Virus record (IMG/VR): IMGVR_UViG_3300020045_011116
Span: 1-38,558 of that record
Reading direction: 5' to 3' (one strand)
Length of the DNA stretch: 38,558 nt
DNA from: a virus
Taxonomy: Duplodnaviria > Caudoviricetes
Within the stretch, counting starts at the first letter, position 1. Each line of letters begins with the position of its first letter. This document shows, piece by piece, positions 1 through 4,108 of this stretch. The notes under the pieces were generated by a model that did no database searches, was not told the origin of the DNA, and worked only from the letters and a program-made list of their open reading frames with translations. The position numbers were made by a program, and so were the translations under genes.

Positions 1-2
1 AA

Positions 3-38
3 TTCAATGAATACAAACAACAAACTACGTTATTTTAA
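3..38 (+). CDS. 3' end of a truncated ORF (...FNEYKQQTTLF*), cargo of the leftmost cassette; C-terminus reminiscent of phage DNA methyltransferases
   Basis: Frame 3 is open from the window edge to TAA 36-38; product guess rests only on the QxTLF-type ending. Confidence 0.3.
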   Translation, partial: FNEYKQQTTLF

Positions 39-111
39 AAGTGCGGTGGCTTTTTTCTTTTTGTTTTTCCTTCACGGATTTTCAATTGGAACACGTCAGC
101 AAGGCATTTCA

Positions 112-206
112 TATAACGTTTTGCAGATTTGCGTTTGTGTGCCACGCAAAAATGTTTATTTCAAGGCACACTGTTTATTGGCACATAACGCAAATGTGCT
201 GTTATA
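112..206. repeat. attC-like imperfect inverted repeat 1
   Basis: Left arm TATAAC-GTTTT-GCAG-ATTTGCGTT-TG-TGTGCCA (112-144) pairs with right arm TGGCACA-T-AACGCAAAT-G-TGC-T-GTTATA (178-206). Confidence 0.85.
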
Positions 207-218
207 GGATAGTTAAAA

Positions 219-380
219 ATGAAAATTGATATGCACATACTTAAATCGAAAACCGTTTGCCATAACAGCGAGAAATTCCTGATAATGGTAGGACACAGAC
301 ATTGGAACTTAGGATTTCAAATACAAGACTGGGGAATAAGAATAATGCTGATATGGTGGCACGTATGCTTTCATTTTTAA
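219..380 (+). CDS. 53-aa hypothetical cassette protein MKIDMHILKSKTVCHNSEKFLIMVGHRHWNLGFQIQDWGIRIMLIWWHVCFHF
   Basis: Translated by hand (below the ORF-track cutoff); fills the space between the two hairpins. Confidence 0.6.
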   Translation: MKIDMHILKSKTVCHNSEKFLIMVGHRHWNLGFQIQDWGIRIMLIWWHVCFHF

Positions 381-385
381 TTTCC

Positions 386-504
386 TATAACGGTTTGCAG
401 ATTGGCGTTGTTGCCTCACAAATGTTTAATTGAAACACTAAACTTGATAATATGGAAAATGATAATTTGAAAACGGAAAGCAATAACGCCAATGTGCTGT
501 TATG
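386..504. repeat. attC-like imperfect inverted repeat 2
   Basis: Left arm TATAAC-GGTTT-GCAG-ATTGGCGTT-G-TTGC (386-414) pairs with GCAA-T-AACGCCAAT-G-TGC-T-GTTATG (480-504); same architecture as repeat 1. Confidence 0.85.
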
Positions 505-736
505 TGCAGTGCCATTGCCTTGCCCATTTTGCGGAGCGGAGGCTAATAAGGATAAGGTTTGGATGGATGCAGTATTTTATATTCAATGCTCGAATACTGA
601 TTGCGTGGCACAACCTTCAATTAGCGTAAAAGCTAAGTGCGTAGAGAATAAAGGTGATACGATTACATACAGCCCATTATGGGAAGATGCAGAAGCGGAG
701 GCAATAGCTAAATGGAACACGAGGCATTGCACATAA
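452..736 (+). CDS. Lar-like (restriction alleviation) zinc-ribbon protein, cassette cargo
   Basis: LPCPFCG...IQCSNTDC...AIAKWNTR matches the Lar family pattern. Confidence 0.7.
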   Translation: MENDNLKTESNNANVLLCAVPLPCPFCGAEANKDKVWMDAVFYIQCSNTDCVAQPSISVKAKCVENKGDTITYSPLWEDAEAEAIAKWNTRHCT

Positions 737-788
737 CATTGTATATGTATTACATCACATTTAACTAATTGATTTAAAATTAATTATT
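723..788. other. Candidate attI-like primary recombination site
   Basis: Terminal core CATAAC (732-737) is followed not by a hairpin arm but by short palindromes (ATGTA-T-TACAT 744-754; TAATTGATTT/AAATTAATTA) just before the recombinase ATG. Confidence 0.5.
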
Positions 789-1616
789 ATGGATATTTCT
801 GCTCACGCTATCTTCTTTGAACAGGAAATGAAACGAAGAAACTTTTCAATTCAGACCATTGAAAACTATTCGTCATGCTTGAAAAAATTCTTTAGTCAGT
901 CAAAATCTGACCACCCAAAAAATATTCACGAAAAAGAAATTCGTGAGTTTTTAGGAACGTTTGATGAACCAAATACACAAAGAGGTTACCACTCTGCAAT
1001 AAAAAAGTTTTATGAAGTTTGCATGAATCAAAAAGATAAATTTCGTTATATTCCTTATGCTAAAAAATCAAATAAATTACCAATAGTTTTATCAGTTGAC
1101 GAAATTCAAGCAATGTTTAATATGTGTGAAAACTTGAAACATAAAGTAATTTTAGGAATACTTTATTCGTGTGGTCTTCGTGTTTCTGAATTAATCAATT
1201 TGAAATGGTCACATATTGACAGGGGTAGAATGATAATAAATATAATTCAGGCTAAAGGCGCGAAGGATAGACAGGTTGCTTTACCGCAAAGTTTAATTCC
1301 ATTGCTTGAAAAATATTTTTTTAAATATAATCCTAAAGTATATGTTTTGAATGGTCAGAATTTTCCACAATATGATGAGCGAAGTGTTGGTAATGTAATC
1401 AAACAATTAGCAACAAAAGCTGGAATTAAAAAGAGGGTCTATACTCACTTAATAAGACATTGCACATTCACTCATCTCGTTGAGCTTGGCACGGACATTA
1501 ATTTAATTCAGAAAATAGCAGGACATAGTAACGTAAAGACTACTAATATTTACTGTCATATTTCAGACAACTTAATCAGTAAAATTCAATCGCCATTAAA
1601 TAATATTAAACTTTAA
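789..1616 (+). CDS. Tyrosine recombinase/integrase with N-terminal SAM-like domain
   Basis: Catalytic set visible: GLRVSE (R), KGAKDR (K), HLIRH (HxxR), AGH (H), TNIY (Y); N-terminal RNFSIQTIENY motif. Confidence 0.95.
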   Translation: MDISAHAIFFEQEMKRRNFSIQTIENYSSCLKKFFSQSKSDHPKNIHEKEIREFLGTFDEPNTQRGYHSAIKKFYEVCMNQKDKFRYIPYAKKSNKLPIVLSVDEIQAMFNMCENLKHKVILGILYSCGLRVSELINLKWSHIDRGRMIINIIQAKGAKDRQVALPQSLIPLLEKYFFKYNPKVYVLNGQNFPQYDERSVGNVIKQLATKAGIKKRVYTHLIRHCTFTHLVELGTDINLIQKIAGHSNVKTTNIYCHISDNLISKIQSPLNNIKL

Positions 1617-2767: not shown

Positions 2768-3172
2768 ATGAAAAATGAAAGTATGAAAAAAGCGAAATCA
2801 ATTAAACAACTAGAGGCTGAAAAAAATAAAGTTCGAAAACAGCTACAGGAAATCAATAATGAAATTGAGGATTATAACCTTAAAAAAGAAATTCCCATGC
2901 TTAAAAAAAAGTATGAAGGAAAATACTGGAAGTATGATAACGGATGTAGTGCAGAAAACAGATGGTGGTTATATTCTTTTTGCAGAAAGGTTACAGGAAC
3001 AGATCAAGGGTTTTTTGATTCGTTTGAAACGACAAACGCAAATTATCGTCAAAACAACTTCAACTACAATGAAGAGCAATTTTTTCATTTATGCCAAATT
3101 GAAATATCAAAAGAAGAGTATTTAAAACAATTTAATCTTTTTCAAGGTCGTTTAAAAAAACTTAAACCATGA
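2768..3172 (+). CDS. Hypothetical protein with N-terminal coiled coil
   Basis: 134-aa ORF, operon packing. Confidence 0.7.
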   Translation: MKNESMKKAKSIKQLEAEKNKVRKQLQEINNEIEDYNLKKEIPMLKKKYEGKYWKYDNGCSAENRWWLYSFCRKVTGTDQGFFDSFETTNANYRQNNFNYNEEQFFHLCQIEISKEEYLKQFNLFQGRLKKLKP

Positions 3173-3339
3173 TGTACTTCCTCTCAATATTCGCCCCTGT
3201 TAGTATTGCTATGGCAGTTATAATGTACCTTACAACCTTCGGCAAAGAGCTATGGCATAAGTTCAAGTTCTATGTACTAAGGTATAGGTTTGAAGGGCAG
3301 AGAAGGATAACTAAATTATATAAAACCCCAATGATATGA
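3169..3339 (+). CDS. 56-aa small membrane protein
   Basis: Hand translation MMYFLSIFAPVSIAMAVIMYLTTFG...; ATGA overlaps on both sides. Confidence 0.6.
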   Translation: MMYFLSIFAPVSIAMAVIMYLTTFGKELWHKFKFYVLRYRFEGQRRITKLYKTPMI

Positions 3340-3509
3340 AAAAACAATTAATAATTATTTTAACCATTTTAGTGTTTACTTATTTATTATTTTCATTTGT
3401 AAAAAATGATTTTAATACTAGCAATTGGTTAATAGTAGATAGACTCGGTCTAGTACTTTCATTAGGTATTACATATCCGCTTTATAAACTAATGGAATTA
3501 AATAAGTGA
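3336..3509 (+). CDS. 57-aa small membrane protein
   Basis: Hand translation MKKQLIIILTILVFTYLLFSFV...; ATGA overlap. Confidence 0.6.
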   Translation: MKKQLIIILTILVFTYLLFSFVKNDFNTSNWLIVDRLGLVLSLGITYPLYKLMELNK

Positions 3510-3543
3510 AAAACATTTAGAGGATAAATTTAATAATTGAATT

Positions 3544-3705
3544 ATGGAAAAAATGACAAATTACGATGTTGTAAAAAAATTGATTGGTAACATTAGACCA
3601 GTTGGCGATGCAACACTATTAAGCACCGATAAGGCAATGTTGTTTATGAGGTGGATTAGAAAAGCTTTGGACAACAATACTTTTGAAACAGTATTTATTT
3701 CTTAA
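3544..3705 (+). CDS. 53-aa hypothetical protein
   Basis: Hand translation MEKMTNYDVVKKLIGNIRPVGDATLLSTDKAMLFMRWIRKALDNNTFETVFIS; converges on the lysis operon. Confidence 0.55.
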   Translation: MEKMTNYDVVKKLIGNIRPVGDATLLSTDKAMLFMRWIRKALDNNTFETVFIS

Positions 3706-4108
3706 TCCTAAACCAAGCCAACACGCCAAAGACTAAAATCAATAAAGCGATTAGCCAATTCCAGTTTATTCGATGCGCTTTGTAAATGTTATTTGTAATA
3801 GTTTTTTCTACAATTACCTTGAGTGAATCACATTTGCCTGATAAAAATATTGTGCTATCCTTTGTGTTATAAAAGTATCGCATCTCAAGCCTACCTTGGC
3901 GAATAATAGTAGTGTCCTTTTGAGTATGGTAAAACTTAAACAGCGTATCGGTTTCAACCTTGTTAATGTTAATCGTATCATGCACTATGGTTGTTTCAGT
4001 CGTAAAGCCACATTTTTGACGTGCTTTTTTTAAACGGTATTCGCAACCACAACTAGCCATTAAGCTCGTTATAACGCAAATAAATAGGGTTTTATACAGC
4101 CTTGTCAT
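3695..4108 (-). CDS. Lipoprotein with C-terminal TM helix; probable unimolecular spanin
   Basis: Lipobox LMAS-C, beta-rich middle, C-terminal WNWLIALLILVFGVLAWF followed by RIKK; last gene of the lysis module. Confidence 0.7.
   Translation of the reverse strand: MTRLYKTLFICVITSLMASCGCEYRLKKARQKCGFTTETTIVHDTININKVETDTLFKFYHTQKDTTIIRQGRLEMRYFYNTKDSTIFLSGKCDSLKVIVEKTITNNIYKAHRINWNWLIALLILVFGVLAWFRIKK

Follow-up and report, generated by a model that had tools for sequence, protein, structure and literature searches.

The first 1,616 bases of a tailed-phage contig carry an integron-like platform whose units have ends that are complementary to each other. It is probable that these units are integron-like cassettes of the phage and that their ends match because the cassettes likely move as single-stranded circles, which fold into what is likely the target of the recombinase encoded beside them. 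The observation of self-matching ends, first made in a sequence-only reading of this DNA, is real, general and predictive. Self-matching ends as such are to be expected of cassettes; the new element is a wobble-marked, symmetric arm of 15 bp.

A cassette platform at the start of a phage contig

The window, by which we mean the whole stretch of DNA that was analysed, is an entire virus record of 38,558 bases; it is linear and estimated to be 81% complete, and its terminase, portal and helicase genes identify it as a tailed-phage contig. The integron-like platform at positions 1-1616 comprises two whole cassettes and one cut cassette, an attI-like site and a tyrosine recombinase. The end-matching units lie in the first 740 bases, directly before the recombinase gene. 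The features of the platform are as follows.

1-116, + strand: 3' end of the cut cassette; its homologues, about 805 bp in length, are cassettes for N6-type DNA methyltransferases
103-117, + strand: 15-nt end arm of the cut cassette; T107 is position 11, and the putative crossover is at AA|C, 116/117
114-204, + strand: attC-like hairpin 1, from its fold and the family consensus; conserved inner T at 186
201-391, + strand: unit A, with complementary ends of 9 + G.T + 12 bp; cassette A, including hairpin 1, is 117-390
219-380, + strand: putative gene, a 53-aa ORF taken from the translation; no known family
388-502, + strand: attC-like hairpin 2; conserved inner T at 484
499-737, + strand: unit B, with 15-bp complementary ends that include G509.T727; cassette B, including hairpin 2, is 391-736
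452-736, + strand: Lar-family restriction alleviation protein, 94 aa; PF14354 at 28.7 bits (cut-off 28.6), phrog_599
726-753, + strand: attI-like docking site with an 11-6-11 layout; left arm 726-736 (cassette-derived), spacer 737-742, right arm 743-753
789-1616, + strand: tyrosine recombinase, 275 aa; PF00589 and PF13495

In both hairpins one arm consists of AAC, five unpaired nucleotides and the stem, and the other of the stem, one nucleotide and GTT; hairpin 1 is also present in four other loci (L006, L029, L033 and L035). The end sequences, coordinates and complementarity that the sequence-only reading had given for units A and B all proved correct. In unit A, 201-209 pair with 383-391 and 213-224 pair with 369-380, with a small internal loop and a G212.T381 wobble between them, and in unit B, 499-513 pair with 723-737 at 14 of 15 positions plus G509.T727. 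The further claim that these ends pair with each other and not with the neighbouring hairpin arm also stands: over positions 4-15, the ends of unit A match each other at nine of 12 ungapped positions, compared with six of 12 for the neighbour.

The 53-aa ORF of unit A has no PHROG match, and its start and stop codons both lie inside the paired end extensions of the unit. The Lar protein scores under the cut-off of TIGR03655; its gene starts within hairpin 2, as do the genes of many other phage units in their own hairpins (85 of 212), and its stop codon is the TAA of the terminal TAAC. Methyltransferase and Lar cargo points to a role in counter-defence. A blastn search with window 60-790 gave no match among cultured phages, Rfam gave no match, and a promoter scan returned 11 sites, too close to the 7.9 of shuffled sequence to be informative. 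Inverted repeats lie at 1690-1795, between the recombinase and the next gene (fold z of -1.7, no clear gain over shuffles; no Rfam match).

The host of the phage is likely a member of the Bacteroidota, because the relatives of its recombinase come mostly from Bacteroidota assemblies (five of seven genome loci) and also include an enzyme of the Polaribacter phage Leef_1. This cultured phage has the same arms, the attI-like site and the recombinase, and thus carries the whole system.

Self-matching ends and the wobble-marked arm

To survey the system we collected 226 loci by hairpin patterns, by recombinase homology and by an attI pattern, together with two cultured phages; a single-protein search of viral contigs gave no loci, and an alignment was needed to detect recombinase homology. 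In 1.61 Mb of sequence that includes the window, attC-like AAC/GTT hairpins, which were called from their inner stem only, number 554 on the main strand and five on the other strand, compared with one in shuffled sequence. End complementarity in homologous arrays, on which the earlier reading had staked its interpretation, is indeed found. We compared 259 distinct units, none longer than 1.5 kb: the two ends of a unit pair better with each other than with the array neighbour in 219, equally well in 24 and worse in 16. These counts are descriptive, since phages that are related do not provide independent cases. Own-end pairing far exceeds chance, with an identity at positions 4-9 of 0.82-0.98 for own ends, 0.29-0.89 for neighbours and 0.26-0.89 for random pairs, and 213 of the 259 units are well paired by the measure of at least five of these six positions. 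The 46 units that fail the own-end test include 26 that contain a missed internal partner and 20 that are unexplained.

The pairing profile of the phage units has a distinctive shape. After the high values at positions 4-9, pairing falls to 0.60 at position 10 and to 0.03 at position 11, returns to 0.63-0.78 at positions 12-15 and is at background from position 16. At the AAC end, position 11 is T in every one of the 213 well-paired units and in 455 of 483 sites. The base opposite this T is G in 170 of the units, C in 23, T in 15 and A in five, and in many of the cases without G a G is found one base further. Positions 12-15 pair at three or more of the four in 203 of 213 own ends, in 48 of 213 neighbours and in three of 64 Vibrio cassettes; a full arm is present in 203 of all 259 own pairs and in six of 259 neighbour pairs. 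From position 12 the run of pairs extends to at least seven bases in 24 of the 213 units, unit A being one example. An end arm consists of about ten pairs, an invariant T that mostly faces G, and then four pairs, for a total of 15 bp.

The sequence-only reading had held that pairing far beyond the 7-bp R box sets these units apart from integron cassettes. This contrast was overstated. Our control of 64 distinct cassettes from Vibrio integrons (L093, L103 and L104), which are sedentary chromosomal integrons with repeats of about 120 nt, also has complementary own ends that pair over 9-11 bp, with values of at least 0.92 through position 9, 0.64 and 0.70 at positions 10 and 11, and background from position 12. 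Self-matching ends longer than 7 bp are therefore an ordinary cassette trait. The circle interpretation itself fits every test that we ran; what it had missed was the invariant mismatch at position 11.

As an alternative, the same reading had proposed that the units are invertible segments, flipped between their inverted ends in the manner of shufflons and phase-variation switches. Each unit does have inverted ends and a tyrosine recombinase does adjoin the array. However, after a flip position 11 would be A in the start arm and C in the end arm, and this reversed pair is seen in none of the 213 units, so that the T/G polarity is fixed. In all 46 same-unit pairs both members share a strand, the longest ORF is on one strand in 209 of 213 units, and the units change position and neighbours instead. 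Inversion is therefore rejected as extremely unlikely.

In the phage units the gene points toward the recombinase (209 of 213), opposite to bacterial cassettes; integron cassette genes point away from intI and are read from Pc. The chromosomal arrays of host bacteria lie downstream of a related recombinase and hold their genes in the canonical direction (L243, L244, L246, L247, L250 and L252). Despite this opposite gene direction, all 11 nearest-partner units have the T on the site strand that bears it in phage units, from which it follows that the T is not a by-product of the gene. The host units come from six of 17 host loci; most of the rest stop close to the recombinase. In L243 two long-range 9/9 matches, which overlap other units, were left out of the count. 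A hairpin test run on the host units returned none, and the host hairpins are supported by separate analyses of these arrays. A loose host-site pattern applied across 41 genomes gave matches no better than the control. Several of the host enzymes have an N-terminal extension and are 370-400 aa in length.

The strand of the T also bears on the idea that the pairing of the ends is of use to the transcript or to the integrated single strand, by stabilizing RNA, controlling translation or pre-folding the array for excision, rather than being a relic of a circular site. Folded in its native form, the + strand of window 90-760 is predicted to pair its own unit ends (p ~0.98), the extension of unit A pairs the start codon with the stop codon, and own-end pairing wins in 28 of 40 phage units. 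Vibrio cassettes do likewise in 13 of 28, however, so that the behaviour is not specific, and array pre-folding by own-end stems is weakened as a special trait. In addition, the site strand that bears the T is unchanged in host arrays, where the transcript is the other strand, and the arm ends sharply at position 15-16, like a protein footprint. We regard such a function as an unlikely source of the matching ends, although it can coexist as a second role with that of the circular site.

What moves and how it may fold

Comparisons between arrays define the unit that moves. Among 1947 pairs of similar hairpins, 264 share only the flank on the GTT side, nine share only the flank on the AAC side, three share both and 1671 share neither. 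Because sharing is on the GTT side in 264 cases and on the AAC side in nine, the cassette is a hairpin together with the unit that follows it on the GTT side, cut at AA|C; it is at AA|C on the + strand that homologues diverge. In a few cases cassettes are seen to be mobile as units and to be reshuffled: a copy of unit B in L232 is 99% identical and has other neighbours on both sides, a 51-bp unit is located at attI in L060 and in the middle of the array (~3620-3675) in the related phage L061, and a 565-nt contig of run X1 spans window 113-398 with other sequence on both sides. A changed neighbour is found in only four of 33 same-unit pairs. The 51-bp unit of L060 and L061 is gene-less and has a second internal GTT start. 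In L232, from 3250 onward, unit B ends at AAC and is followed by neither a hairpin nor an attI right arm, possibly at a secondary target or a decayed site.

One hairpin with its 15-bp arms can also frame different genes. Window 388-513 and L028 (4002-4125 and 4752-4766) have this hairpin and these arms in common, with one compensated change. The cargo inside the shared frame is unrelated, Lar in the window and a methyltransferase in L028, and homology stops at the edge of the arm. Nine of 13 frame-sharing pairs have unrelated cargo, and contigs of runs X1 and X2 diverge from the window at 513. Reuse of a hairpin and 15-bp arms around unrelated genes may show how cassettes are born. In L028 (2729-4005), L112 and L128, multi-gene units of 1.2-1.5 kb occupy a frame that elsewhere holds one methyltransferase; about 60-80 bases inside this frame lies a second inverted repeat, rich in A/T.

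Self-matching ends predict missing sequence. From the end arm of the cut cassette, the sequence-only reading had predicted a matching start upstream of the window. The predicted sequence is absent elsewhere in the window, and the contig begins at base 1. We considered that the contig might simply be circular at base 1 and discarded this, as the predicted partner is also missing at the other end of the contig. In other phages the prediction is borne out: the start GTTATATGAAGTGCC is present in six of seven homologous units (L028, L112, L128, L157, L165 and L178), where the seven are those of eight listed distinct copies of the end that have the upstream site in available sequence. The exception, L175, starts with an unrelated arm and is a chimera. 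A match in L191 was left unscored, as it lies on the other strand of an unoriented locus. Over its full length window 1-117 is 95% identical to L157 and 93% identical to L178, and the L157 unit, which starts with the predicted sequence, codes for a DPPY-motif methyltransferase. The chimeric unit of L175 (~2795-3736) joins the start arm of one frame to the end arm of another.

The T that marks the outer arm has a counterpart within the hairpin. In the inner arm a T is found 15 bases before GTT in 462 of 473 sites, which were selected on a different base, and it mostly stands opposite G; beyond it four more pairs are found in 415 of 428 sites (three registers allowed). When the two arms are aligned on the T, the pattern A-T-six bases-W-A is common to both, with the motif in mirror position, and a circular site would likely have two matching Xer-like arms. 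The unpaired spacer is 5/1 or 5/2 nt in 132 of 162 sites, and mismatches and T.G wobbles take the place of extrahelical bases.

The docking site has a related organization. In 34 of the 41 loci with a recombinase, an attI-like AAC precedes the start of the recombinase gene by 47-56 nt, so placed that the site adjoins the integrase gene with entry at G|TT, and the sequence changes exactly at AA|C. To the right of AA|C the site is conserved; to the left it is variable except for T11, which is present in 31 of 32. A complementary start was found upstream for 21 of the 32 left arms, and 11 have no partner in the available sequence, several of these being near contig ends. Our interpretation is a site with two Xer-type arms separated by a spacer of 6 bases, in which the hairpin would carry a 4-base bulge on its cut strand. 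In L074-L085 and L092, a second group of phage recombinases (42-44% identity) occurs with a different right arm of the docking site and with the common hairpin family.

We envision that in a single-stranded cassette circle the two ends and the one hairpin would fold into the recombinase site. The recombinase would bind the two arms as Xer-type half sites and would read the wobble T as a landmark, the role that extrahelical bases have in integrons. Only the + strand would be cut, at AA|C, with the T.G wobbles favoring folding of this strand; the circle would then be inserted at attI and replication would resolve the junction. Pairing within the array would stop after the core because integration splits the outer arm between two cassettes, and genes that face the recombinase would be read from upstream phage promoters. 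In models of the junctions the circular form averages -26.5 kcal/mol and the array form -18.4 kcal/mol. The modelled circular junction is the more stable in 209 of 213 units, and the + strand is predicted to fold more stably than the - strand in 211 of 213. The back-joint of a circle was found in none of the contigs of four runs, and since no run holds more than 9% of the stretch, circles are not disfavored by this result. Against the mechanism stands an enzyme that lacks the I2 segment, which has been tied to single-strand recombination (Escudero 2016, PMC4792948).

An enzyme without the IntI insertion would suit a scheme in which cassettes move by double-stranded, two-exchange Xer-type recombination and folding is incidental. 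The recombinase resembles archaeal XerA about as much as it does IntI, and the attI-like site resembles the 11-6-11 core that is the layout of dif. However, arm sequences vary freely from cassette to cassette while keeping their pairing, the sites and attI do not have the same 5-nt stretch after AAC, and the T.G bias runs in one direction only. These observations argue for selection on the folded strand and not on the duplex sequence, and we consider double-stranded exchange quite unlikely.

It could also be that the arrays are host cassettes acquired passively by homologous recombination, in which case the recombinase would be an ordinary prophage integrase with its attP. Only three of 180 pattern-found phage loci have the recombinase within 3-5 kb, so most arrays would need the enzyme from elsewhere. 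The paper on Leef_1 takes integrases as a temperate trait, and its main text, in the part available to us, uses neither "integron" nor "cassette" (PMC8776804). Multi-gene and chimeric units, as in L028 and L175, suggest that homologous exchange also happens. On the other hand, the site in front of the recombinase has a left arm that derives from a cassette and switches exactly at AA|C between homologues, and the genes of phage cassettes run opposite to the host orientation, so that they are not plain copies. Passive uptake is thus a very unlikely account of the arrays, and we favor movement as folded single-stranded circles.

Relation to integrons and other known systems

The catalytic residues of the recombinase (R131, K156, H220, R223, H246 and Y255) are intact and align with those of IntI. 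The IntI-specific insertion with the I2 helix is absent: 21 residues occupy the region that has 64 in VchIntIA, with a gap relative to two IntIs. The protein scores 176 bits with the integron integrase model TIGR02249 (cut-off 265) and 192 bits with the XerA-type model NF040815 (cut-off 220), and it is under the cut-offs of TIGR02224 and TIGR02225 (XerC and XerD). Its fold model (pLDDT 80) matches XerA and VchIntIA equally, and its best PDB sequence match is VchIntIA (2A3V). A tree of 32 rows was built that includes five host Xer proteins, without L249 (which has no ORF) and without XerA or other simple recombinases. In this tree the phage enzyme groups with its host relatives and IntI, apart from the host XerC/XerD (99/97). 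The tree fixes no order among IntI, host and phage enzymes, so ancestral absence of I2 and its loss are not separated.

Parts of this system have been encountered before. Integron-like simple tyrosine recombinases have been described that include some members without the full insertion, and in the available part of that work we found no sites, arrays or function for the insertion-less members (Smyshlyaev 2021, PMC8138268). Bacteroidota are listed among integron hosts, with no mention of the present variant in the part of the paper available to us (Ghaly 2021, PMC8618304). In a study of phage CALINs, P12002L_attC1 from the Polaribacter phage P12002L was the only one of six sites that IntI1 failed to recombine and was treated as an ordinary attC without an integrase (Qi 2023, PMC9892861). 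By its 5/1 geometry and its position-11 T, this site belongs to the present family. The available portion of Qi 2023 (PMC9892861) contains no description that we could find of a cognate recombinase, an attI or end arms. Our literature search, which covered listings and the starts of abstracts, with subscription papers and preprint supplements outside its range, found no description of the system or of its 15-bp arm, although extended pairing may be mentioned in earlier studies of circular cassettes.

The prevailing view is that integrons require the I2 helix to act on folded single strands; the origin of integrons and the making of cassettes are long-standing questions. An enzyme that lacks I2, a docking site with a 6-bp spacer and symmetric arms marked by a wobble make both of these questions testable, and Leef_1 on Polaribacter provides a cultured example. 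Tentatively, we raise the possibility that the platform represents a surviving second branch of integrons, common to the Bacteroidota and their phages, in which single-strand recombination proceeds without I2 and a plain Xer-like fold reads a T.G landmark on both arms. Escudero 2016 (PMC4792948) links I2 to single-strand sites and raises the idea of an origin that was viral and Xer-like, and the platform may then show the pre-I2, virus-borne stage of that proposal. A system of this kind would account for how quickly methyltransferase and anti-restriction genes are exchanged between Bacteroidota phages. It would also account for the failure of standard integron tools and of IntI1 to recognize these sites. 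For delimiting cassettes and predicting missing sequence, a practical guide is the end rule (GTT plus 12 nt, with T at position 11).

The phage system is like integrons in its tandem AAC...GTT cassettes, in its crossover at AA|C and in an attI located at the 5' end of the recombinase gene. It differs from them in an enzyme that is about 43 aa shorter and lacks the IntI insertion, in a 6-bp attI spacer, in a 15-bp outer arm with an invariant T.G, and in the inverted direction of its genes. The unpaired spacer of its hairpins is 5/1 nt, whereas canonical attC sites have 5-6 unpaired nucleotides on both arms, together with 2-3 extrahelical bases (Nivina 2016, PMC5027507). The system probably works in an integron-like manner but falls outside the integrons by its enzyme, its site geometry and its gene orientation. 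CTXphi-like elements offer a second parallel: a folded single strand, mimicking a duplex, is integrated in them by a Xer-type enzyme that has no I2 (Escudero 2016, PMC4792948). CTXphi, however, uses the XerCD of its host and inserts its whole genome into dif, whereas the phage described here has an enzyme of its own and many small cassettes.
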